Part shown: positions 4,380 through 35,292 of the stretch, piece after piece
Position numbering within the stretch: the first letter of the stretch is position 1
Layout: every line of letters starts with the position of its first letter
Origin: a virus
Lineage: Duplodnaviria > Heunggongvirae > Uroviricota > Caudoviricetes
Strand: one strand, 5' to 3'
Virus record (IMG/VR): IMGVR_UViG_2737471864_000010
Span: 1 to 41,069 of that record
Length of the DNA stretch: 41,069 nt
Notes under the pieces: model-generated
Seen by the model: the letters and a program-made list of their open reading frames with translations, nothing else
The model's database searches: none
Told to the model about the DNA's origin: nothing
Position numbers and translations under genes: made by a program

Positions 4380-4874
4380 ATGAATATGATTACTCATAAA
4401 GAATTAACCTCTTCACTCAACTACAACCCAGAAACAGGCGTCTTCACTTGGAAGATAGCTTCTGGTAGCTCCAGTATCGGAAAGGTTGCTGGATTTAAGA
4501 CGAACTCACAGGCCGACTACTTATCAATACGGATTAATGGAAAATCGTATCTTTGCCACCGACTTGCTTGGTTTTATATGAAAGGATGCTGGCCTAAAGG
4601 GTTAATTGACCATATTAACGGGGTTAAAAATGACAATAGAATTTCAAACCTAAGAGAAGTAACCAGAGGTCAGAATAAAACCAACAGCGTTTCATCATCC
4701 AATACAGGTATAAAAGGAGTTCATCTTCTTAAAGGGAAAAACACATATAAAGTTATGTTCAAACTAAAAGGTAAGTCTATTTTCCTTGGGTATACCGATG
4801 ATATTGAGCTGGCAGAATTAATGTCTATTGCATTCAGGGAAAAATATCATGGCGAGTTTGCTTGTTTTAGGTAA
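4380..4874 (+). CDS. HNH homing endonuclease with AP2-like DNA-binding domain (paralog 1 of 3)
   Basis: 164 aa; motifs NYNPETG, HRLAW, DHINGVKNDNRISNLR and C-terminal GIKGV…KYHGEF; AAGGA ribosome-binding site 7 nt upstream. Confidence 0.75.
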   Translation: MNMITHKELTSSLNYNPETGVFTWKIASGSSSIGKVAGFKTNSQADYLSIRINGKSYLCHRLAWFYMKGCWPKGLIDHINGVKNDNRISNLREVTRGQNKTNSVSSSNTGIKGVHLLKGKNTYKVMFKLKGKSIFLGYTDDIELAELMSIAFREKYHGEFACFR

Positions 4875-4907
4875 TGTCTGTCATTTAATTTGCTCCAGAT
4901 ACAAGGA

Positions 4908-5007
4908 ATCGCCGCAGCATGGCTACGGTTGGCGTTTGTTTGGTTTTTGAACTACGAAAATTTCGTAGTGCTATCCATCAAGGCCATCGCCGCAGCATGG
5001 CTACGGT
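4908..5007. repeat. Two copies of a 22-bp direct repeat (ATCGCCGCAGCATGGCTACGGT) flanking a perfect 19-bp palindrome (ACTACGAAAATTTCGTAGT)
   Basis: Direct reading; copies at about 4908-4929 and 4986-5007, palindrome at about 4951-4969. Confidence 0.6.
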
Positions 5008-5062: not shown

Positions 5063-5986
5063 TCAGTAGTTATGTACTGAAGGAGGTAATTCTTTATTCT
5101 TAAGTCTCATCCATGCGGAAAGATTCGCTGGTCCGTCTGGCTCATTAATATCAACATCTCGTGTGTGGTTTATTAAAACGTCTCTCGCCATTCCTATAAC
5201 ATACGAGAACTCATGACCGTAGTCGTAACATCTGCCGGAATAGTTCGATTGAATTTGTTTTAGCGCCGGATACAATTCGCGGAATAATGCCTGTGAGCGG
5301 TTGGCATAATCCCATAACCATACGAGGCTGTTTGCTTCTTTTGCAGAAAGCTCGTTGGTTTTCTTCTCTTGTTTGCAGATGAACTCACCTTCAAGCGGAA
5401 CGCGAGCTGCAAGTGACAGTGCTTCGGTAAACTGCTCCTCACTAATTTCTTTGTACGAACATCCAAAATGGGATTTCAGTGACGACCACATGGTGATCAT
5501 CGCCTTAGCCTGTTTTTCTTTTGGCAGAGACTGACCGCGACTCATGACGAGTTGTTTAATGGCTTCCTGCTGTTCAGTGGTGATTTTACCCTGCAACGCC
5601 TTTTTAGCTTTGCGTGGGTTAACTACATGGCCTTTAGTCCAGTACTCATAGAGCACATCGTCACACTCTTCCTGATACTGGATTACCTTGTCGCGGATTT
5701 CAGGGCGGACTTTGTTTGGACTGATGGTTTGCAACCAGCCATTAAGTTTACGTAAAGCAAGGCAAATCATGTTCTGCACACCGCCAACTGAAGGTATTGC
5801 GATTTCCACAATACCTTTAGCAAATCTTTGTTTTAACTTTGTAAACTGTGAAGCCCAATCCATACCCATTCCCTCAACGATAGGTTTCATTGGGGTGTAC
5901 GGCTCACCGTTGTGATTGACAACATAAAGCTCTGCGCCGTGGAATGGTACATTGATAGTAGATACTGCTGTTGCTATACTTTTCAT
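5063..5986 (-). CDS. ant: Antirepressor (Ant-like) protein
   Basis: 307 aa located downstream of an Arc-like gene and divergent from mnt, as in the P22 immI region; N-terminal region resembles phage antirepressor domains. Recognition from memory. Confidence 0.55.
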   Translation of the reverse strand: MKSIATAVSTINVPFHGAELYVVNHNGEPYTPMKPIVEGMGMDWASQFTKLKQRFAKGIVEIAIPSVGGVQNMICLALRKLNGWLQTISPNKVRPEIRDKVIQYQEECDDVLYEYWTKGHVVNPRKAKKALQGKITTEQQEAIKQLVMSRGQSLPKEKQAKAMITMWSSLKSHFGCSYKEISEEQFTEALSLAARVPLEGEFICKQEKKTNELSAKEANSLVWLWDYANRSQALFRELYPALKQIQSNYSGRCYDYGHEFSYVIGMARDVLINHTRDVDINEPDGPANLSAWMRLKNKELPPSVHNY

Positions 5987-6049
5987 GTCGTTAATTCCTA
6001 TGCGTGGTTTTACGATACCGAAGCCCTGACTGTTACCGCAGTTGGGGCT

Positions 6050-6253
6050 TCAACTTTCTGCTCTATCAGTTATATCTTTCCCTTCATATACTTCACCTAT
6101 ATTGCTAATGCTGGCAGAACATCCAAGATGCTTGTATCTTATGATGTCCAACACGCAGTCACTACACAGCATCCGACCTGTTTCTTTAGAGTAAATGTAT
6201 GTTTGATCAGCGTCTGATTCGCTAATGCCGCAGAAACAACATTCTTTACTCAT
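6050..6253 (-). CDS. Small Cys-rich (zinc-ribbon-like) hypothetical protein between arc and ant
   Basis: 67 aa with CCFC…CSDC cysteine pairs; start overlaps the arc stop. Confidence 0.4.
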   Translation of the reverse strand: MSKECCFCGISESDADQTYIYSKETGRMLCSDCVLDIIRYKHLGCSASISNIGEVYEGKDITDRAES

Positions 6254-6390
6254 ACCGTTATCCCCTCTCTCTTCAGGCTGTCCATCACCCGTTTAATTAC
6301 TTCTGCACTAAATGAGCGACACTCTTCCTTTGCTTTCTCTTCAAGGATTTTTTCTAACTTCTCTGGCATACGCAGTGTTTTTACCTTCAT
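6250..6390 (-). CDS. arc: Arc-like ribbon-helix-helix repressor (below the ORF-track length cutoff)
   Basis: Hand-called 46-aa ORF MKVKTLRMPEKLEKILEEKAKEECRSFSAEVIKRVMDSLKREGITV with a GGAGG ribosome-binding site; resembles P22 Arc. Confidence 0.5.
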   Translation of the reverse strand: MKVKTLRMPEKLEKILEEKAKEECRSFSAEVIKRVMDSLKREGITV

Positions 6391-6489
6391 TGCATCCTCC
6401 GTTGTATGTGGTACGCATACATAGTATTTAGGTACGCATTGATAGTCAATAGATACCTACATATCCTGTGGTAAAAAATTATTCAGGAT
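6391..6489. promoter_or_regulatory. Divergent immI control region (Pant/Pmnt-type) with operator-like palindromes
   Basis: Intergenic region between divergent arc and mnt-like genes; contains repeated GGTACGCAT and the palindrome ATTGATAGTCAAT. Confidence 0.4.
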
Positions 6490-6495
6490 GTGCCG

Positions 6496-6753
6496 ATGTC
6501 TGATCGTAAGTACAAAAACCCTCAAGTGAATCTGAGGCTTCCTGTAGAGATAAAGGAACGTCTTATTGAACTGGCTGAGGCTAATTCTCGTTCATTAAAT
6601 GCTGAGATGGTCGCGGCACTTGAAGCATGGACCGAAAAAAATAAACACATTCAAGCACTAGACCTTGCAACTATAGCATCACGATTGATAGATCTTGAAC
6701 ATGATGTTGAGAAGTTGAAATGCATGTATAGCAACAATAAAGACGAAAGTTAG
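6496..6753 (+). CDS. Ribbon-helix-helix (Arc/Mnt family) DNA-binding protein, second Mnt-like paralog
   Basis: Track ORF starts at a GTG at 6490; the ATG at 6496 with an AGGA site is preferred. The N-terminus NLRLPVEIKERLIELAEANSRSLNAEMVAAL fits the RHH pattern. Confidence 0.55.
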   Translation: MSDRKYKNPQVNLRLPVEIKERLIELAEANSRSLNAEMVAALEAWTEKNKHIQALDLATIASRLIDLEHDVEKLKCMYSNNKDES

Positions 6754-28475: not shown

Positions 28476-29000
28476 TTATCCTCTCCCATGATTATGGTGA
28501 TACCCCAATCGTGATTCCGCCAATTTTCTGGCATTAACGGCTAGAGATATGTCATCGTATAATCCAAGAAATATCTTTTTATTATCACTGTTTATATATG
28601 CGCCCCACTTTTTATTCTTCTTATAGTAGGCAACACCCATTACTCCAGAGCGATTATTAATAGGCTTTTTTCTGTTCCTTGAGTTCTGTTTATCATCTAC
28701 AACGCGCAAATTGCATATTCTGTTATCGCTTTTAATTCCATTTATGTGGTCAATTTCCCCATCAGGTTCGCTTCCATAAAATGATATCCATGCGATTCTA
28801 TGAGCTCGACAAACTTTTTTATTTACAGATATACGAACGTATCCTTTTTCATCTATAGAACCAGCAATCTTACCGGCATATGTTGAATTCCAGCACTCTC
28901 TTACACTTTCTCTTCTTTTGTATATAAACAAACCTGTTTCGCTATTATATTCATACAATTCATTGATTTCTTTTTGTGTTGGATATCTTTTACCGTTCAT
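28476..29000 (-). CDS. HNH homing endonuclease with AP2-like domain (paralog 3 of 3)
   Basis: 174 aa; EYNSETG, HRIAW, DHINGIKSDNRICNLR, GVMGV; strongly AT-rich; start and stop abut the neighbouring genes. Confidence 0.75.
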   Translation of the reverse strand: MNGKRYPTQKEINELYEYNSETGLFIYKRRESVRECWNSTYAGKIAGSIDEKGYVRISVNKKVCRAHRIAWISFYGSEPDGEIDHINGIKSDNRICNLRVVDDKQNSRNRKKPINNRSGVMGVAYYKKNKKWGAYINSDNKKIFLGLYDDISLAVNARKLAESRLGYHHNHGRG

Positions 29001-29287
29001 GGCTTAATCTTCCCCTCCTTCAGCAATACCGCCTGCGTCCTGATTACGCCTTCGAGGTGGTAAAGTCTGGCGTCTTTGTTGTCGAGGTTATGGGTGCGTC
29101 GGTCGATCTCCGCGTGGCAGTCACTACAAGCCCATGCGCCGATCAGGTCGTCAGGCTTCATTCCCGTTCCGCAAATTCCAGCCATCCGGTAATGTGCCAG
29201 AACTGTAGTTTCAGGATTGCCATTGCATACGCCGTAAATACGTACCTGGCATTCTCTGCCGCGCGCTTCTTTGCGTAGGTTAGCCAT
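28997..29287 (-). CDS. ybcO: YbcO-like DUF1364 protein (putative Zn-binding nuclease)
   Basis: 96 aa MANLRKEARGRECQVRIYGVCNGNPETTVLAHY…CSDCHAEIDRR…, matching DLP12 YbcO as recalled. Confidence 0.7.
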   Translation of the reverse strand: MANLRKEARGRECQVRIYGVCNGNPETTVLAHYRMAGICGTGMKPDDLIGAWACSDCHAEIDRRTHNLDNKDARLYHLEGVIRTQAVLLKEGKIKP

Positions 29288-29898: not shown

Positions 29899-30317
29899 TC
29901 GTACCTCCTGTCGGTAAATCTGACACCCTGACCAATAGCCCATGCTGTCGTGTACTCAATCAGGCTTGCCATGCGCTTCACGCTCATCTGCGCGCTACTT
30001 TCGCGAATGTTGACGTATTCGCCTTCAAGCCCGGGCAAAACATCAGCTTCCTGCTTTGTTGCCACTGCATGACCGCTTATCAACAAAACCTTCCATTGTT
30101 CTGGTTTTAACCATTTGCCGCACCATTGAACCTGACTTGCGATATCCGCCAGCATCGCGTGAAATTTTGCGTTCTGGTCAAGGTTGCGCTTGTAGTCAGT
30201 AATGCGGATGGTAACTGGCTTGTCTTTATCGAGTGGTGTTGCGAGGATGGCGGTGATTGCGGCTTGCTGTTGTTGCTTACTCCTGAGGAAAATTGTCTGT
30301 TTCATGGAATTCCTCAA
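29895..30317 (-). CDS. ninB: NinB/Orf-family recombination mediator
   Basis: 140 aa with the NinB-type central block …[32 protein letters not shown]…. Confidence 0.7.
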
Positions 30318-30526
30318 TATGTGTAAAGGCTATATCCGTTTTTATTTGTCCTGGTGCCATAGCCATATAGGCTCCAGTCATCCTGTTTTCTCTCACCAAA
30401 AATATGCTTGCGGTATTCTTCCTGCTGGCGTCTCCATATTTCCATCATGTCTGGCTGGTTCTTTTCTCGCATTTTTCGAATCTGCTCAAGGATGAACTCT
30501 ATTTGCTGCTGATTTGTCATGCTCAC
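30314..30526 (-). CDS. Hypothetical protein
   Basis: 70-aa ORF translationally coupled to ninB. Confidence 0.4.
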   Translation of the reverse strand: MSMTNQQQIEFILEQIRKMREKNQPDMMEIWRRQQEEYRKHIFGERKQDDWSLYGYGTRTNKNGYSLYTY

Positions 30527-30530
30527 TCCT

Positions 30531-30746
30531 TTACTTTAAATCCAGACTCCGAATAATTCTGTTGCGCTGAAACTCATTGTTGAGTTTGGACAACCGTCGA
30601 AGAACACGGTCACGCGGATAGCGTCGTGCAGCAGGTGAATGCTCATACAACTCATCAATCGGCAAACTGGACGATGAACGATACCGATACCAACGCACCA
30701 ACTCTTCACGAAAATTAGCCCTGACAAGCTCAGCTATCGTACTCAT
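30531..30746 (-). CDS. Hypothetical protein
   Basis: 71-aa ORF with a GGAGG ribosome-binding site. Confidence 0.4.
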   Translation of the reverse strand: MSTIAELVRANFREELVRWYRYRSSSSLPIDELYEHSPAARRYPRDRVLRRLSKLNNEFQRNRIIRSLDLK

Positions 30747-30775
30747 TTCTTAAAGCCTCCAATTCCCTCTCCCCC

Positions 30776-30806
30776 AAATAAAAAGGCCTGCGATTACCAG
30801 CAGGCC
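30776..30806 (-). terminator. Intrinsic terminator downstream of the primase-helicase gene (tR2-like position)
   Basis: Minus strand GGCCTGC-TGGTAATC-GCAGGCC followed by TTTTTATTT. Confidence 0.55.
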
Positions 30807-30836
30807 TGTTATTAGCTCAGTGATGTAGATGGTCAT

Positions 30837-32717
30837 TTAATACTCCGTCACGTTTTCCTGTCGCCACGCCTCGTCATATTCCGATTTCGGCATATTGGCG
30901 ATGTAGCTATATGGCGATCCTGATTCAAGTTGCAGGAACTGGTGCGATTGCTCGTCAAGGAACAACGGGACACCACCCTCCCAACCTTCGCCGTTACGTT
31001 GTTTTTCAAGCATCAAAACAGATGCCGGAGATGCCAGTAGCTGTTCGTCCTTCTCTGACATCTTTTCACCACTCTGAACTCTCTGTAACGCTCTCTCGCG
31101 AGCCTTGTTACGCCAGATGATGAAAAGGTTGTCTGTCAGGTCTGTTATCGCTCCAGAGCCTTTTACGTCCATTTTCCCGGTTGGTTTTTCTTCGCTGTCT
31201 CCTTTTCGCGAGTGAGTAACGAGAATGACGTGGGAGTTTGTTTTGTTTTTGAAGTCGCAAATCGAGTCAACAAACGCCTTCTGCCCGTTATAGTCATCGT
31301 CGCCTATGCCACATTTCATCAGGCTGTCGATGATGAATAACTGGATCCCGTATCGGCGGCGAGCGTAGTCGAATATTTCGATCAGCCTGTCGGCTTTCGC
31401 CGTTCCGGTCAGGCCAAACACCCAAAGTCTTTCGTCATAAAATTTAAATGCAGAGTCAATTTCCAGCACTGGCGGCATCTTGCAGCACGTCGCCTGACGG
31501 GTAAGTCGCTTAAGGAGAATGCCTGGCTTCAGCTCAAGTGACGCGATGCACGTCTTCACACCCTGACGCATTGCCTCAAGTGCCATATGCCCGACAACCT
31601 CCGTTTTTCCGTGACCGTTCACACCATTGACCAGCGTCAACTCTGCCTCACGGAACTGGAATTTATCTGCCAGAGATTCCCACGGTGGATTAAACAGATA
31701 CTGCTGCTTGCCGTAGAAAGCGTTGATAGTGTCCTGGTAAAACTCTCGCGCACTGTAGAGTTCTTCAGGATCGAAGTAGGATGCCGTGCCGATGTACTGC
31801 CAGATTTCATCCTCGGTAACACCGTTCATCAGGCATTCGTTGATGTCTTTGTACGGCAGAGTAACAAGACGGCAACGATGTTCACCGAGTCGGCTTGCGA
31901 TTTCCCTTGCGGCTTCACGACCAACATCATCAACATCCATCGAGATGAATATTTCCTCAAACCTGTCGAGGTTGTGATACTCAAACTCAATCCACTGTTG
32001 CTTAGCGCCTTTCCCGCCACCAAACGGCACGGATAACGCCGAGATGCCGTATTGCGCATAGCTCATACAATCAATTTCGCCTTCGCAAAGTACAACCGCC
32101 CTCACGCCAGCGTCCAGAGCCTGCCATCCGAACAGACAAGGTTCGCAATCACCTTCTGCCATAATGACTTTCTTCCCGTCCGGGCGCTCAGTGCTGATTC
32201 GCTTGACCTGCAACAACTCACCATCGCGTTTGTACGGAAGCACCAGAGCATCCAGTTCCCGCTCTCCATTCCACACCTTGCCGCTGACAACCTCGTAGCG
32301 CTTTACGATTTCTGGCGATATGCCACGCGATTGCAGGTACTCAAGATGGGATTCTGTTCTGGTAACGTAGCGGGAGATTTTCTTGCGATCAGGTCTGGAG
32401 AATTTCTTCTCACGTTTGGCATCGAAATGGTGATCGTCATCCTTGATACCGAGAAATGCTTTCGCTTCCTGCATAGCCTGATGCAGGTTAATTCCTCGAC
32501 ATGCCATCCACAAATCAAGCATGTCACCGCCGTCTCCCTCAGCGAAATCAGCCCATTTTTTCTTGCCGCTAAGGTTGACCTTAAGGCTGTTTCCCTTGTC
32601 ACCGTTGACGTTACCGGCAACCCACTCATGCCCCTCTTTCTTGCCGTTTGGCAACAGGTGCGGAGCCACCCTGTCAACCTGCGCCCAAAGCAGGTCGCTG
32701 AGTTCACTTGGCCTCAT
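30837..32717 (-). CDS. Bifunctional DNA primase-helicase (Toprim primase domain plus SF4 DnaB/gp4-like helicase domain)
   Basis: 626 aa; central acidic Toprim-like region (…VVLCEGEIDCMSYAQ…DVDDVGREAA…); Walker A GVNGHGKT and Walker B-like LFIIDSL in the C-terminal half. Confidence 0.8.
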   Translation of the reverse strand: MRPSELSDLLWAQVDRVAPHLLPNGKKEGHEWVAGNVNGDKGNSLKVNLSGKKKWADFAEGDGGDMLDLWMACRGINLHQAMQEAKAFLGIKDDDHHFDAKREKKFSRPDRKKISRYVTRTESHLEYLQSRGISPEIVKRYEVVSGKVWNGERELDALVLPYKRDGELLQVKRISTERPDGKKVIMAEGDCEPCLFGWQALDAGVRAVVLCEGEIDCMSYAQYGISALSVPFGGGKGAKQQWIEFEYHNLDRFEEIFISMDVDDVGREAAREIASRLGEHRCRLVTLPYKDINECLMNGVTEDEIWQYIGTASYFDPEELYSAREFYQDTINAFYGKQQYLFNPPWESLADKFQFREAELTLVNGVNGHGKTEVVGHMALEAMRQGVKTCIASLELKPGILLKRLTRQATCCKMPPVLEIDSAFKFYDERLWVFGLTGTAKADRLIEIFDYARRRYGIQLFIIDSLMKCGIGDDDYNGQKAFVDSICDFKNKTNSHVILVTHSRKGDSEEKPTGKMDVKGSGAITDLTDNLFIIWRNKARERALQRVQSGEKMSEKDEQLLASPASVLMLEKQRNGEGWEGGVPLFLDEQSHQFLQLESGSPYSYIANMPKSEYDEAWRQENVTEY

Positions 32718-32824
32718 GATTCCCTCAGATTGAGATTTTTAAACCAGAAATCGACAAACGAAATACTTAACCAGCCGTGGTTATAACCAGCGACCAGTAG
32801 CGATTTGATTTTTGATTTCATGGT

Positions 32825-33685
32825 TCACCTGTCGAAAAACACGTAGCCAGTTTTCGATACGGTGATTGCGGATGATGGTTTGGATTGTGGTTGAATGGTT
32901 TCTGGCTTTTCGTCGTTCCAGCGCTGACCGTTCAGGTAGCTCGATGGTAACAACCTGTCGAATCCGAACTGCTTACCATTCCTGCATGCGATGTCTTCTG
33001 CCAGCATCGTGGCAAACTCTCTTGCCGTACCCCTGGTAGTTTTACGCCATTCCCTGAACTGTGTTCTGAATGCCGAAGCTGCGTTTTTCTTCCCGGCTTT
33101 CCGCATGCCTGCACACCAGAATATTTCCTCGAATGCCTTGTCGGTTTCTTCGTGACGGTCAGATGATTTTTCACACTCCGTCCGAACACTTTCGGACATA
33201 GTGTTTTTATTATTTCTTTTTTCTTTTGTAATAGTTTCTTTTGTGTGTCCCTGTTTTGGTGACAGCGCTGTCACCGTTTTGGTGACACTTTTTGTCACCA
33301 ATGCAGTGACATTATCACCAGAGTAGTGACACCCTTCGATTTGCCATTCTTCGATGTTCTTGTTAGGCCCGATTTGCTGGCCTTCGCGAAGGATAACCTT
33401 CATCGCGATAAGCTCATTCTTGGCCTTGTTTACCTTCTGTCTTGGCAGCCTGGTAATTTGAGCTAACTGACTATCAGAGATGCGATCCATCTTTTTACCG
33501 TAGCCGTATGTTTTACGGCATATGGCGTGGGCAACCTTGCTCTGATTTTTCGTTAAATCTGCGCCGATAAGCTCTTCATACAGGGCATTTGCAAGACGGG
33601 TATAACCATCTTCAACTTCTGCCACACGACGCTCCACAGGCCGTTGTGAAGGCCTTAAATGTGTTACGGTTGCAAGATTACTCAT
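32825..33685 (-). CDS. Replication initiator with lambda O-like N-terminal origin-binding domain
   Basis: 286 aa; N-terminus …[56 protein letters not shown]… parallels lambda O; iteron-like repeats lie inside the coding sequence. Confidence 0.75.
33258..33334. repeat. Origin-like iteron array inside the initiator gene, followed by an AT-rich tract
   Basis: Reiterated GGTGACA/TGTCACC-type inverted repeats at roughly 20-bp spacing; AT-rich run at about 33205-33250 on the side toward the initiator C-terminus. Confidence 0.65.
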
Positions 33686-33856
33686 GACCTTTCTCCTTCT
33701 GCATCAGCTTCACTTTTTCCAACTCAGCCCGGAATCGACCAGGCTGCTTGAAGCTGGACAGGAAGCGATCACGTAGTATGTGTTTGTGAATTTTGTCCTG
33801 GTAAGGACTGAGTTGTTTTGTCATAATTACTCCCGTGGATTGATCCAGTAATTCCC

Positions 33857-34153
33857 TCAGAATTGCATATCAATTTGCTTAAAATCCTCGGTGGCGGCCG
33901 GGGATTTTTTCTTTGTGAGTCCATCAAGCGCATACTTAAAAGCCCTGCTAATCGGACTGATGTCTGATGCCATTCCGAAAGCACACAAGACCGAAGCAAT
34001 AAATCTCCAGTCCGTTCTGCTTATCTTCGATTCATGACAGCCAATCATCTTTGCCAGACCGCGCTGGGTAAGCGTTGACAGGTTGATGAGTAAATCAGTT
34101 TCAGCGCGATCAATTTCTCGCTGTGTTGGCTTGCTGTAACTTGTTTGTGTCAT
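33857..34153 (-). CDS. cII: CII-like transcriptional activator
   Basis: 98 aa; helix-turn-helix [15 protein letters not shown] and C-terminal [18 protein letters not shown] parallel lambda CII. Confidence 0.7.
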
Positions 34154-34274
34154 TTCTTACTATCTCCATAGGTAAATAATTTGGGTTTTTATCGTGCACC
34201 ATTGACAGTCATCCTTGACCACGCCGGGCACCCGACCGTATACCGGGCCGTTCGGTACTAAAAGTACATTTTTA

Positions 34275-34505
34275 TTACATAACAAACTGCTGTTTACCGA
34301 TACGGCGAATCTGTGCTGCTGAGTACTTGCCGCCTGATGCCTTGGCGATCTTATCCGCATATTCGGTTTCACCAGTGAACTCGGTACGCGGCAGAGAACC
34401 ACGCTCAAGCCACTTATAGATGGCTTTTGGCGTAAGTCCACAAACATCAGCCACAACAGAAACTCGAACGGATTTGATAACTTCTCCAAACGTAACTTCG
34501 TTCAT
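34275..34505 (-). CDS. cro: Cro-like helix-turn-helix repressor
   Basis: 76 aa, divergent from cI, AGGAGA site 6 nt upstream; helix-turn-helix VADVCGLTPKAIYKWLERG. Confidence 0.6.
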   Translation of the reverse strand: MNEVTFGEVIKSVRVSVVADVCGLTPKAIYKWLERGSLPRTEFTGETEYADKIAKASGGKYSAAQIRRIGKQQFVM

Positions 34506-34520
34506 GCTTCTCTCCTGCGG

Positions 34521-34592
34521 TGAACTTATGGTTCATATTATGACGGAACTGATAGTACAGTCAATACCTAATATAGTTGAACTTATGGTTCA
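34521..34592. promoter_or_regulatory. Immunity control region: two copies of a 15-bp operator palindrome TGAACTTATGGTTCA, PR for cro, and PRM-like promoter for cI
   Basis: Operator copies at about 34521-34535 and 34578-34592; minus-strand PR -35 TTGACT and -10 ATAATA with a 17-bp spacer; plus-strand TAATAT 10 nt before the cI ATG. Confidence 0.6.
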
Positions 34593-35292
34593 ACAGAAAG
34601 AGCGTGAAACTTTCTCGCAGAGGCTTGCGCTGGCCTGTGATAAAGCGGGATTACCTTTGCATGGTAGGCAGGCTGATTTAGCTGTCAGGCTTAAGGTCAC
34701 ACCAAAAGCCATTAGTAAATGGTTCAACGGGGAGTCAATACCAAGAAAAGACAAGATGGAATCTCTGGCTTCGGTGCTGGGAACTACTGCTGCATATCTG
34801 CATGGCTATGCTGATGATGACGGTATCACGGTAAATCATCTATCAAGATCAAATGATTATTATCGTGTTGATGTATTGGATGTTCAGGCGAGCGCCGGGC
34901 CAGGAACCATGGTTTCCAATGAATTTATAGAAAAGATAAGAGCAATTGAATATACGACCGAGCAGGCAAGAATTTTATTTAATGGAAGGCCACAGGAAAG
35001 CGTAAAAGTCATCACGGTTCGCGGTGACAGCATGGAGGGAACCATCAATCCGGGAGATGAGATCTTTGTTGATGTATCCATAACCTGTTTTGATGGCGAT
35101 GGCATTTATGTGTTTGTATACGGGAAAACAATGCACGTTAAGCGCCTGCAAATGCAAAAGAACAGGCTTGCCGTCATCTCTGACAATGCCGCTTATGATC
35201 GATGGTACATAGAAGAAGGTGAAGAAGAGCAACTTCACATTCTAGCCAAAGTCCTCATTAGGCAGTCAATCGATTACAAGCGATTCGGATAA
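34585..35292 (+). CDS. cI: CI-type prophage repressor (N-terminal helix-turn-helix, C-terminal S24 LexA-like autopeptidase domain)
   Basis: Track ORF 34420..35292 trimmed to the ATG at 34585 because the longer form overlaps cro and the promoter; helix-turn-helix QADLAVRLKVTPKAISKWFNG; S24 Ser motif VRGDSMEG and Lys in GKTMHVKRLQ. Confidence 0.85.
   Translation: MVQQKERETFSQRLALACDKAGLPLHGRQADLAVRLKVTPKAISKWFNGESIPRKDKMESLASVLGTTAAYLHGYADDDGITVNHLSRSNDYYRVDVLDVQASAGPGTMVSNEFIEKIRAIEYTTEQARILFNGRPQESVKVITVRGDSMEGTINPGDEIFVDVSITCFDGDGIYVFVYGKTMHVKRLQMQKNRLAVISDNAAYDRWYIEEGEEEQLHILAKVLIRQSIDYKRFG

Follow-up and report, generated by a model that had tools for sequence, protein, structure and literature searches.

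Gene content of the replication module

The window, a stretch of 41,069 nucleotides (positions 1 to 41,069 of IMG/VR virus record IMGVR_UViG_2737471864_000010), contains the replication module of a P22-like lambdoid E. coli prophage of the ES18/epsilon34/mEp043 type. On the minus strand the order is cro, cII, DUF2740, the initiator, a gene of 35 codons, the primase-helicase and a terminator (Table 1), and the stop and start codons of the initiator, the 35-residue gene and the primase-helicase overlap or abut. The module combines a lambda-O-type origin-binding protein with the phage's own T7-gp4-type primase-helicase, without the lambda P helicase loader. The primase-helicase lies exactly where lambda has P and P22 has gene 12, and its translation is coupled to that of the initiator. 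No homolog of lambda P was detected in the window by tblastn (the best match, with an E-value of 0.04 over 28 residues, lies elsewhere in the window). Likewise, no lambda P or DnaC-type loader gene is found directly downstream of the initiator, where the 35-residue gene and the primase-helicase are located instead. This confirms the initial annotation, which had paired a lambda-O-like initiator with a Toprim and SF4 helicase protein in place of a P-type loader; domain annotation of both proteins gave the same assignments, and their coordinates were exact.

The module ends in a terminator-like hairpin, consisting of an 8-bp stem with 6 G-C pairs followed by TTTTATTT. The annotation of phage g341c has a terminator at the corresponding position. 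A search for RNA families between positions 30000 and 35500 gave no Rfam match.

Table 1. Features of the replication module, by position in the window
Feature	Position	Strand	Evidence
Intrinsic-terminator-like hairpin	30784..30807	-	30 nt past primase-helicase stop
Primase-helicase gene, 626 aa, T7 gp4 family	30837..32717	-	ORF; Pfam; PHROG; PDB; AF2/Foldseek
SF4 helicase domain (aa ~335-600)	30918..31715	-	Pfam; T7 gp4 alignment; 64 homologs
Primase RNA-polymerase/Toprim domain (aa ~120-320)	31758..32360	-	Toprim_2 match; T7 gp4 alignment
N-terminal domain (aa 1-95), DnaG zinc-binding-domain homolog without Cys/His ligands	32433..32717	-	NCBIfam dnaG; alignment
35-aa gene (MKSKIKSLLVAGYNHGWLSISFVDFWFKNLNLRES)	32714..32821	-	phrog_21848, E 4e-26
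Replication initiator gene, 286 aa	32825..33685	-	ORF; Pfam PF04492; TIGR01610; lambda O identity
Conserved C-terminal tail (aa 272-286), candidate docking peptide	32828..32872	-	Alignment; predicted beta-hairpin
Helical C-terminal domain (aa 179-252)	32930..33151	-	AF2 pLDDT 86-92
A+T-rich tract, presumed DNA-unwinding element	33198..33245		Sequence; base composition
Four ~19-bp dyad-symmetric iterons, TGTCACCnnnnnGGTGACA type	33246..33331		Direct and inverted repeat search
Winged-helix origin-binding domain (aa 20-114), putative binding	33344..33628	-	Pfam match

The initiator and its in-gene origin

The initiator consists of a lambda-O-type N-terminal domain, a disordered linker and a C-terminal region that is not of the lambda type. 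Residues 20-114 match Pfam Phage_rep_O (PF04492; E 1.3e-37, 128.6 bits against a cutoff of 28.7), and the protein scores 105.5 bits against a cutoff of 45.5 with the NCBIfam model phage_O_Nterm (TIGR01610). The N-domain is 49% identical to lambda O, but only to residues 1-155 of that protein. Beyond residues ~155-157 of lambda O there is no similarity, and the lambda O C-terminus (the P-binding domain) had no match in the window when used as a tblastn query. The N-terminal domain is thus lambda-O-like, as first proposed. In the AF2 model a winged helix (residues 21-107) is followed by a disordered segment (121-175) and a helical domain (179-252). A Foldseek search with the full-length model returned only CRP/MarR-type winged helices, with weak E-values, all from the N-domain.

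The helical C-domain carries the motif FEEIFWxAGMRK, and its alignment includes both invariant and near-invariant columns. It has no Pfam match at E-values up to 10, and comparison with PDB sequences gave only a chance match (E 0.57). Protein homologs retrieved with this domain are mostly partial database entries, among which two types of N-domain are evident. The extreme C-terminus is a conserved tail in which residues 274-284 are modelled as a hairpin at low confidence (pLDDT ~55).

The initiator gene also contains the elements expected of an origin in the initial annotation, namely GGTGACA/TGTCACC iterons and an adjacent AT-rich tract, and both are borne out. Four dyads are located at 33246-33264, 33269-33287, 33293-33311 and 33312-33331, with a spacing of 20-24 bp, a layout that parallels the four annotated iterons of lambda. 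Four exact heptamers fall inside 42 bp of the origin; across the whole window 11 are observed, against 4.07 +/- 1.96 expected. The tract adjoining the iterons is A-rich on the coding strand, and its 33200-33239 portion contains 17.5% G+C (~82% A+T) compared with ~47% G+C around it. By analogy with ori-lambda, it is presumed to be a DNA-unwinding element.

The primase-helicase

The downstream gene was first described as a 626-residue Toprim plus SF4 helicase protein, and profiles, fold and catalytic residues all uphold this description. Profile matches cover Toprim_2 (residues 209-296, E 3e-12) and AAA_25/DnaB_C (residues 355-594), although Pfam DnaB_C itself falls under threshold (23.8 versus 27 bits). 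The protein belongs to phrog_239, 'DNA primase/helicase' (E 3e-171), and matches T7 gp4 among PDB sequences with an E-value of 3e-23. Its AF2 model has a pLDDT of 92.7, and the best Foldseek match is T7 gp4 (5ikn_J, E 1e-26, target-normalised TM 0.77 over 524 alignment columns), followed by Twinkle, DnaB and Aquifex DnaG.

Conservation of motifs was counted over 64 representatives of the family. The Toprim residues E212, D261, D263 and D291 correspond to E157, D207, D209 and D237 of T7 gp4, and each is kept in 62-63 of the 64. In the helicase domain, K371 (Walker A, GVNGHGKT, 365-372), E395, D464 (Walker B) and H502 (the sensor histidine) correspond to T7 K318, E343, D424 and H465, and are invariant in all 64. 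None of the aligned Toprim acidic or Walker residues is missing. The position of the T7 arginine finger, R522, is occupied by K519; lysine is found here in 39 of the 64 homologs and arginine in 20, so that this is a conservative departure from the SF4 motif set. The enzyme is a predicted primase and 5'-3' helicase.

The N-terminal domain is less typical. The NCBIfam dnaG model matches residues 26-143, and the domain is confidently folded in the AF2 model, with beta strands in residues 26-64 followed by two helices. Strongly conserved positions include L21, P23, G25, G35, G39, G42, S44, G51, D57, G64 and D65. There is no cysteine before C73, and no conserved cysteine column in the 64 homologs. 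The zinc N-terminal domain of T7 gp4 is required for template-directed priming. The loss of the ligands raises the possibility that the enzyme is a helicase only, whose zinc-less N-domain cannot direct template-specific priming, and that host DnaG makes the primers as it does with P22 gp12. The absence of any Cys4 or CHC2 ligand set from both the window protein and its 64 homologs is consistent with this, as is the presence of metazoan Twinkle among the best structural matches. Metazoan Twinkle has lost both its zinc ligands and primase activity. However, the near-universal retention of the four Toprim residues, together with the strong conservation of the N-domain, argues for selection on a working primase, and a helicase-only enzyme seems unlikely. 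By analogy with P22 gp12, P4 alpha and T7 gp4, we infer that the module may function independently of both host DnaB and host DnaG, but the missing zinc ligands make independence from DnaG less secure than that from DnaB.

The 35-residue gene

The small gene between the initiator and the primase-helicase, conserved and translationally coupled, was overlooked in the initial annotation. Its ATG lies 3 nt past the initiator stop, and its own stop overlaps the primase-helicase start (ATGA). All three variants compared have exactly 35 codons while being 51-71% identical, and the window copy differs from that of epsilon34 at 9 codons synonymously and at 10 non-synonymously. The gene is annotated as epsilon34 gp51 and ES18 gp60. 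Fusion of the initiator to the 35-residue protein by stop-codon readthrough was considered. The two reading frames agree in the window, but in three other loci they do not, and such a fusion was discarded as a conserved feature.

It is present in every IMG/VR locus whose contig extends that far, and 27 loci of Enterobacterales genomes carry it, with primase-helicase identity as low as 53%. It is absent from some Xenorhabdus and Providencia loci, where the primase-helicase is 68-70% identical and the initiator tail is kept. In Legionella, Geobacteraceae and other distant lineages the gene is also missing, and the initiator gene abuts the primase-helicase.

The coupling on both sides, the fixed length across divergent variants, the family of its own in PHROG and the breadth of the Enterobacterales distribution would fit a true adaptor or loader. 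Such a protein would be a miniature analogue of lambda P, either bridging initiator and helicase or cracking the helicase ring, and recruitment would then be indirect. However, no homology to any loader was detected in Pfam, PHROG or NCBIfam, and the absence of the gene both from distant lineages and from several Xenorhabdus and Providencia loci that keep the initiator tail suggests that it is dispensable. We consider an adaptor or loader role for this protein doubtful.

Modularity and distribution

This module is found widely among prophages of E. coli, Salmonella and Shigella, Stx2a phages among them. Of 5426 complete E. coli genomes, 251 contain it at a query coverage of at least 80%. The N-domain type of the window is the commonest in IMG/VR. 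The C-terminal region was found in 80 IMG/VR loci; the 35-residue gene and the primase-helicase lie directly downstream wherever the contig extends, and lambda P is present in none of the 80.

The same C-terminal region, 85-98% identical, also occurs behind other N-domains, namely the lambda type (epsilon34/ES18), an unrelated HTH_36 domain (Stx2a_F403) and a fourth type (LMessi). These initiators are again followed by the primase-helicase, which is 95-99% identical to that of the window, or 61% in LMessi. The iteron sequence changes along with the N-domain type (epsilon34/lambda; Stx2a_F403). The initiator gene is a mosaic whose two halves can be exchanged, such that the N-domain moves together with its iterons and the C-terminal region with the 35-residue gene and the primase-helicase. 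The joint falls within the disordered linker, the coding sequence of which consists of the iterons and the A-rich tract.

Bacterial genomes were scanned for the primase-helicase family with an alignment of nine sequences. In 71 of 78 loci with a family member, a same-strand open reading frame of at least 150 residues ends no more than 260 nt upstream. The gaps between this frame and the primase-helicase are bimodal, either -4 to +22 nt or 101-116 nt, the latter being the space that holds the 35-residue gene. Upstream proteins that were sampled carry Phage_rep_O, HTH_36 or Lin1244_N DNA-binding domains. Co-inheritance of adjacent DNA is also possible from linkage alone.

The C-terminal domain, the tail and the downstream partner

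Relatives of the helical C-domain that are 37-44% identical lie upstream of a DnaC-like loader in Pseudomonas phage Skulduggery and upstream of unrelated proteins in Vibrio phages. Conversely, lambda-O-type C-domains are found directly upstream of primase-helicases in other bacteria. Given these mixed partners, the type of C-domain is not what determines the downstream protein, and the hypothesis that the partner class is set by the helical C-domain is rejected at large evolutionary distance.

The tail shows a different pattern. Among loci whose primase-helicase is at least 66% identical, the hairpin tail is present in 20 of 21 (21 of 21 with a near-variant that falls outside the pattern), and in this clade it is kept behind three different types of preceding domain. 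In the clade at ~60% identity the tail is replaced, and the helical domain is retained. In these sequences the last ~15 residues of the initiator, and not the helical C-domain, track the lineage of the primase-helicase. Lambda O has a similar C-terminal end (...YGVDL), and a role shared by all such initiators, rather than helicase binding, is therefore conceivable for the tail.

Direct recruitment of the primase-helicase by the initiator C-terminal domain, as proposed in the initial annotation, is plausible. It is also conceivable, with rather low probability, that there is no specific contact between the two proteins. The initiator and transcription would open the origin, the enzyme would load itself, and the shared C-terminal region would reflect linkage and a recombination-tolerant linker. 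The position of the mosaic joint in the disordered linker would fit such a reading, as would the mixing of helical-domain types and downstream partners at large evolutionary distance and the loading of T7 gp4 without a loader (PMC9198812). However, the conservation of the tail behind three domain types, following the primase-helicase clade, is not readily accommodated, and the presence of an initiator-like gene that ends 0-22 nt upstream of nearly all family members exceeds the needs of origin opening.

A proposed model for initiation

The explanation that we favor, and consider probable, is that the initiator melts the origin and that its C-terminal region hands over to the phage primase-helicase. 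Initiator dimers would bind the iterons, form an O-some-like complex and melt the A+T-rich tract. The C-terminal region would then pass the opened origin to the hexameric primase-helicase, the likeliest contact being the conserved beta-hairpin tail behind its flexible linker, and the 35-residue protein possibly assists in the hand-over. The enzyme would open its ring and load in the manner of T7 gp4, with no ATP-driven loader, unwind in the 5'-3' direction and probably lay primers for host DNA polymerase III. It is very improbable that the origin instead fires through host DnaB by an unrecognised route, with the primase-helicase reserved for, e.g., late rolling-circle replication or defence evasion, as the module has no loader gene and the enzyme is located exactly where lambda P or P22 gene 12 would be, translationally coupled to the initiator.

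A more specific version can be offered tentatively, as possible but not likely. The module could be a self-contained helicase-delivery device of three parts, in which a beta-hairpin peptide of the initiator docks a zinc-less gp4-type enzyme, with the 35-residue accessory protein added in enterobacterial lineages, and in which the peptide can be transplanted behind unrelated domains. If so, temperate phages would have a form of loader-free replication independent of DnaB, DnaC and DnaG and running on host Pol III. Partner specificity would be set by the tail rather than by the domain, and the principle might extend to lambda O with its ...YGVDL end.

Which host proteins a temperate phage requires depends on the type of its replication module, and the host mutations or defence systems able to block the phage may, by extension, vary with that type as well. 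In Stx phages the module type has been associated with the stability of lysogens (PMC8044961, PMC8951638). In the searchable literature we found no biochemical study of this module, nor experiments on it in ES18, phi24B or Eru5 phages or on its dnaB/dnaG dependence. The contrasting behavior of tail and domain, together with the 35-residue gene, provides concrete targets for mutagenesis.

Relation to known systems

The pairing of an O-type initiator with a primase-helicase is common and previously described rather than new; it is an ordinary arrangement that has already been catalogued. T7 gp4 and mitochondrial Twinkle share the fold and catalytic residues of the window enzyme, at an identity of about 21%. 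In contrast to T7 gp4, the window enzyme has no zinc ligands in its N-domain and has lysine at the R522 position. Unlike either protein, it is encoded in a temperate phage beside an iteron-binding-type initiator, and no polymerase gene was seen in the module or in the nin genes next to it. P22 genes 18 and 12 likewise provide an O-type initiator and a phage SF4 helicase with no loader. However, P22 gp12, summarised as a DnaB-type helicase with citation of Wickner 1984 (PMC8022706), has no primase domain and works with host DnaG, whereas the window enzyme is gp4-like with a fused DnaG-type primase. Lambda O and P share the gene position in the pR operon, the homologous N-domain and the in-gene origin with four dyad iterons and an A+T tract. 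The C-terminal domain of lambda O is unrelated to that of the window, and lambda P, the loader that captures host DnaB, is replaced here by a phage enzyme.

Among Stx phages, the window module overlaps the 'Eru5' replication type (reference Stx2a_F403; also phi24B and Min27), as judged by protein identity. Eru5 is catalogued as an HTH protein plus a primase, and is typed by identity to Stx2a_F403 of the two proteins next to cI on the opposite strand (PMC8951638). The last ~144 initiator residues are 85% identical to those of the window, and the exteins of the primase-helicase are 96-99% identical to the window enzyme. However, the N-domain of Stx2a_F403 is HTH_36, with GGGCAGCTCCTGCCCCACCCC repeats, and that of the window belongs to another family. 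The Eru5 enzyme also carries a 342-residue Hint/LAGLIDADG intein in its Walker A loop, whereas the window copy has none.

The three-gene architecture of the window is found in the Salmonella phages ES18 (gp59-gp60-gp61) and epsilon34 (gp50-gp51-gp52), and also in g341c and SEN22. Within this group the C-terminal region of the initiator shares ~98% and the primase-helicase 95% identity with the window, and the 35-residue gene is annotated. Their N-domain, at 94% identity to lambda O, is lambda-specific, and the iterons are of the lambda type (ATCCCTCAAAACGAGGGA), whereas the N-domain of the window is 49% identical to lambda O and is accompanied by TGTCACC/GGTGACA iterons. The gp50 protein of epsilon34 has been described as an origin binder and the region as ES18-like (PMC2629481), and the occurrence of an O relative together with a primase-helicase in some P22-like phages is explicitly noted in a 2023 paper. 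The closest relatives are mEp043, Sf101 and vB_EcoP-720R6, which are 98.1-98.6% identical in nucleotide sequence over 83-85% of positions 30500-34200. They have the same initiator, small gene and primase-helicase, the differences being confined essentially to the flanking cII and nin genes.

Operon setting

The module lies in the rightward early operon of a P22-like prophage, on the minus strand of the window. The virion genes (window 1-25000) are a ~95% match to the E. coli phages phiv205-1, CUS-3 and Sf101. ORF calls place the module exactly at 30837-33685 with a 626-aa primase-helicase, as in the initial annotation.

Features of the early operon, in order of transcription
Feature	Position	Strand	Remark
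pR-like promoter	34537-34564	minus	first in operon order
cro	34275-34505	minus
cII	33857-34153	minus	Pfam Phage_CII
DUF2740 gene	33678-33824	minus
Initiator gene	32825-33685	minus
Dyad repeats (iterons)	33246-33264, 33269-33287, 33293-33311, 33312-33331		inside initiator gene
35-aa gene	32714-32821	minus
Primase-helicase gene	30837-32717	minus
Strong terminator-like hairpin	30784-30807	minus	after primase-helicase
DUF7301, NinB, NinE, NinF genes		minus	beyond terminator-like hairpin

On the plus strand, antisense to the operon, a terminator-like hairpin (33881-33908) has a 12-bp stem followed by TTCTTTG; it overlaps the 3' end of cII. Its placement and orientation resemble those of the lambda OOP antisense RNA terminator; it has no match in Rfam. 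The cI ORF as called mechanically (34420-35292, plus strand, 290 aa) overlaps cro on the opposite strand, and the true start is probably an internal Met near MVQQKERETF, well downstream of the called start.

Initiator and in-gene origin

The N-terminal portion of the initiator is lambda-O-like, as first annotated. Residues 20-114 match Pfam Phage_rep_O far over threshold (E 1.3e-37) as well as NCBIfam phage_O_Nterm, and BLASTP gives 49% identity to lambda O across residues 1-157, with no similarity past residue 157. The GGTGACA/TGTCACC repeats reported inside the gene form four dyads of 19-20 bp, of the form TGTCACCnnnnnGGTGACA, spaced by 20-24 bp and adjoining an A+T-rich tract (33200-33239, 17.5% G+C). 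Exact GGTGACA heptamers occur four times in 42 bp, and 11 times across the whole window against ~4 expected. Ori-lambda has the same layout of iterons and A+T tract inside the initiator gene.

The AlphaFold model (input alignment of 26 sequences) predicts a winged helix (aa 21-107), a disordered region (aa 121-175) whose coding sequence coincides exactly with the iterons and A-rich tract, a helical domain modelled with confidence (aa 179-252, pLDDT 86-92) and a low-confidence beta-hairpin (aa 274-284).

The C-terminal region is found on several different N-terminal domains. In epsilon34 and ES18 it is ~98% identical and joined to a lambda-specific N-domain, which in epsilon34 gp50 shows 94% identity to lambda O (PMC2629481). 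In phage Stx2a_F403 it is 85% identical over the last ~144 residues (96% by tblastn with a 122-residue C-domain query) and follows an unrelated HTH_36 domain, while in phage LMessi it is 60% identical and follows a fourth N-domain type. The downstream primase-helicases are 95%, 96-99% and 61% identical, respectively, and the iteron sequence varies with the N-domain type. Because N-domains and iterons swap while the C-region keeps its primase-helicase, the initiator gene consists of two exchangeable cassettes, with the joint in the disordered linker.

Primase-helicase and 35-aa gene

No credible match to lambda P was found anywhere in the window by tblastn. In its place, in agreement with the initial annotation, is a Toprim-plus-SF4 protein with Pfam Toprim_2 (aa 209-296) and AAA_25/DnaB_C (aa 355-594) domains. 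It belongs to PHROG 239 'DNA primase/helicase' (E 3e-171), and T7 gp4 (E 3e-23) and Twinkle are the sequences closest to it in the PDB. None of the Toprim acidic or Walker residues is missing. Sequence alignment to T7 gp4 (T7 residue in brackets) pairs the Toprim acidic residues E212 (E157), D261 (D207), D263 (D209) and D291 (D237), Walker A K371 (K318), the catalytic Glu E395 (E343), Walker B D464 (D424) and the sensor His H502 (H465). An exhaustive search identified 8324 homologous cluster representatives at E <=0.001 (854 at E <=1e-30), and in a family alignment of 64 representatives, 34-60% identical, each of these residues is kept in 62-64. The AlphaFold model (pLDDT 92.7) is closest in structure to T7 gp4 (5ikn_J, E 1e-26, TM 0.77 on target); Twinkle, DnaB and the Aquifex DnaG zinc-binding and polymerase domains come next.

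The protein differs from T7 gp4 at two points. The first ~95 residues correspond by homology to the zinc-binding region of DnaG (NCBIfam dnaG match, aa 26-143); T7 gp4 has zinc ligands in this region, whereas neither the window protein nor the 64-member alignment has any. The T7 arginine finger, R522, is replaced by Lys at K519, a position that is K in 39/64 representatives and R in 20/64. On this alignment, Lys and Arg alternate throughout the family at this catalytic trans-acting residue.

A 35-codon ORF separates the two genes. It starts with an ATG 3 nt past the stop codon of the initiator and ends with a TGA that overlaps the ATG of the primase-helicase. The product belongs to PHROG 21848, a family without assigned function; the epsilon34 counterpart is annotated gp51, similar to ES18 gp60. 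Variants 71% and 51% identical also have exactly 35 codons, and the epsilon34 copy differs by 9 synonymous and 10 non-synonymous codons. The gene is found in every IMG/VR locus reaching that far and in 27 genome loci, where identity of the primase-helicase goes as low as 53%. Among the genome loci compared, several of Xenorhabdus and Providencia lack it, as do all distant lineages. The product is likely to be a genuine accessory protein, and one that is probably dispensable.

Insertions in and near the module

Several relatives carry insertions. Modules in L048, L051, L070, L082 and L086 (comparison loci; ~locus 4480-4970) and some E. coli genomes have ~490 bp between the 35-aa gene and the primase-helicase, encoding a homing-endonuclease-like protein (NUMOD4/HNH_3, 164 aa) that starts at an ATG overlapping the 35-aa gene stop; they are otherwise near-identical to those without it. 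The primase-helicases of Stx2 phages F403 (L001, 3086-5992), phi24B and Min27 and of some IMG/VR contigs (L016, L037) contain 342 additional residues exactly between K371 and T372, in the Walker A loop. This segment starts ACPLNE, ends ...THN|T and matches Pfam Hint and LAGLIDADG_3, which identifies it as an intein that contains a homing endonuclease; the window protein is without it. In a 1.8-billion-protein library, the family members P0187, P0200, P0231 and P0287 are split at the same Walker A residue, and P0194, P0228 and others near residue 209-211. In the IMG/VR locus L032, ~1.25 kb (~locus 5268-6519) interrupts residue 263, inside the DxD motif, and is probably an insertion sequence inactivating the gene; E. 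coli VR50 has an annotated IS3-family transposase in the corresponding region. The nin region of the window has a free-standing 174-aa HNH_3 endonuclease gene (28476-29000, minus strand) immediately downstream of the gene for a putative YbcO-family nuclease (28997-29287), which looks like a further homing-endonuclease insertion.

Choice of helicase partner

Relatives of the helical C-domain (37-44% identity) precede a DnaC-like loader in Pseudomonas phage Skulduggery and unrelated 173-213-aa proteins in Vibrio phages D65 and PVA1. Searching one genome per species with the primase-helicase alignment gave 80 loci, ranging from Enterobacterales to Legionella, Geobacteraceae and Vampirovibrio. In 71/78 loci the primase-helicase is preceded on the same strand by an ORF of at least 150 aa that ends no more than 260 nt upstream, with a bimodal gap (-4 to +22 nt, or 101-116 nt). 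In the genome loci sampled these upstream proteins have Phage_rep_O, HTH_36 or Lin1244_N domains and at least 4 or 5 types of C-terminal domain, including what is clearly the lambda O type (L139, L153, L166). With both C-domain types and downstream partners mixed, the domain type does not encode the partner.

The last ~15 residues of the initiator (aa 272-286) behave differently from the domain type. By pattern, a hairpin-like tail is present at 20/21 loci of the clade with at least 66% primase-helicase identity, where it follows three different domain types; the remaining locus, L105 (...GDYYYLER), has a near-variant. In the ~60% identity clade the same helical domain is kept and the tail is different. 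Distant-lineage initiators end in ...LMAGVI-like peptides. These patterns support a short C-terminal docking peptide on the initiator. Lambda O ends in the similar ...DWIYGVDL, so a role common to all such initiators is possible for the tail.

Zinc-less gp4-like primase-helicases 42-47% identical to that of the window are common in Legionella, other Gammaproteobacteria, Geobacteraceae and Vampirovibrio (L088-L167), each directly after an HTH_36, Phage_rep_O or Lin1244_N initiator-like gene. At least five copies are present in Symbiopectobacterium purcellii.

Proposed mechanism

The gene pairing described in the initial annotation is confirmed, and its interpretation, that the initiator C-terminal domain recruits the helicase directly, is partly supported: the tail follows the primase-helicase clade, but the helical-domain type does not encode the partner. 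We favour a mechanism based on homology, gene order, translational coupling and comparative patterns, in which the steps past DNA binding are inferred. An O-some would assemble on the in-gene iterons and the A+T tract would melt. The C-terminal tail would then deliver the gp4-like primase-helicase that the phage itself encodes, perhaps with help from the 35-aa protein, and this enzyme would unwind and prime for host Pol III. Independence from host DnaB and DnaC is likely; for DnaG it is uncertain, given the missing zinc ligands.

Comparison with known systems

The module DNA is 98.1-98.6% identical to mEp043, Sf101 and vB_EcoP-720R6, and ~88-92% identical to epsilon34, g341c and SEN22. Of 5426 complete E. 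coli genomes, 2130 match some part of the query and 251 match at least 80% of it. A literature search turned up no experiments on the module itself. The arrangement of O-type initiator and primase-helicase is already known. Epsilon34 gp50 was described as an origin binder in an ES18-like replication region (PMC2629481, 2008), and the Stx-phage version, an HTH protein with a primase, is the Eru5 replication type with Stx2a_F403 as reference (PMC8951638, 2022). P22 genes 18 and 12 follow the same logic, with an O-type initiator, a phage-encoded helicase and no loader (PMC8022706).
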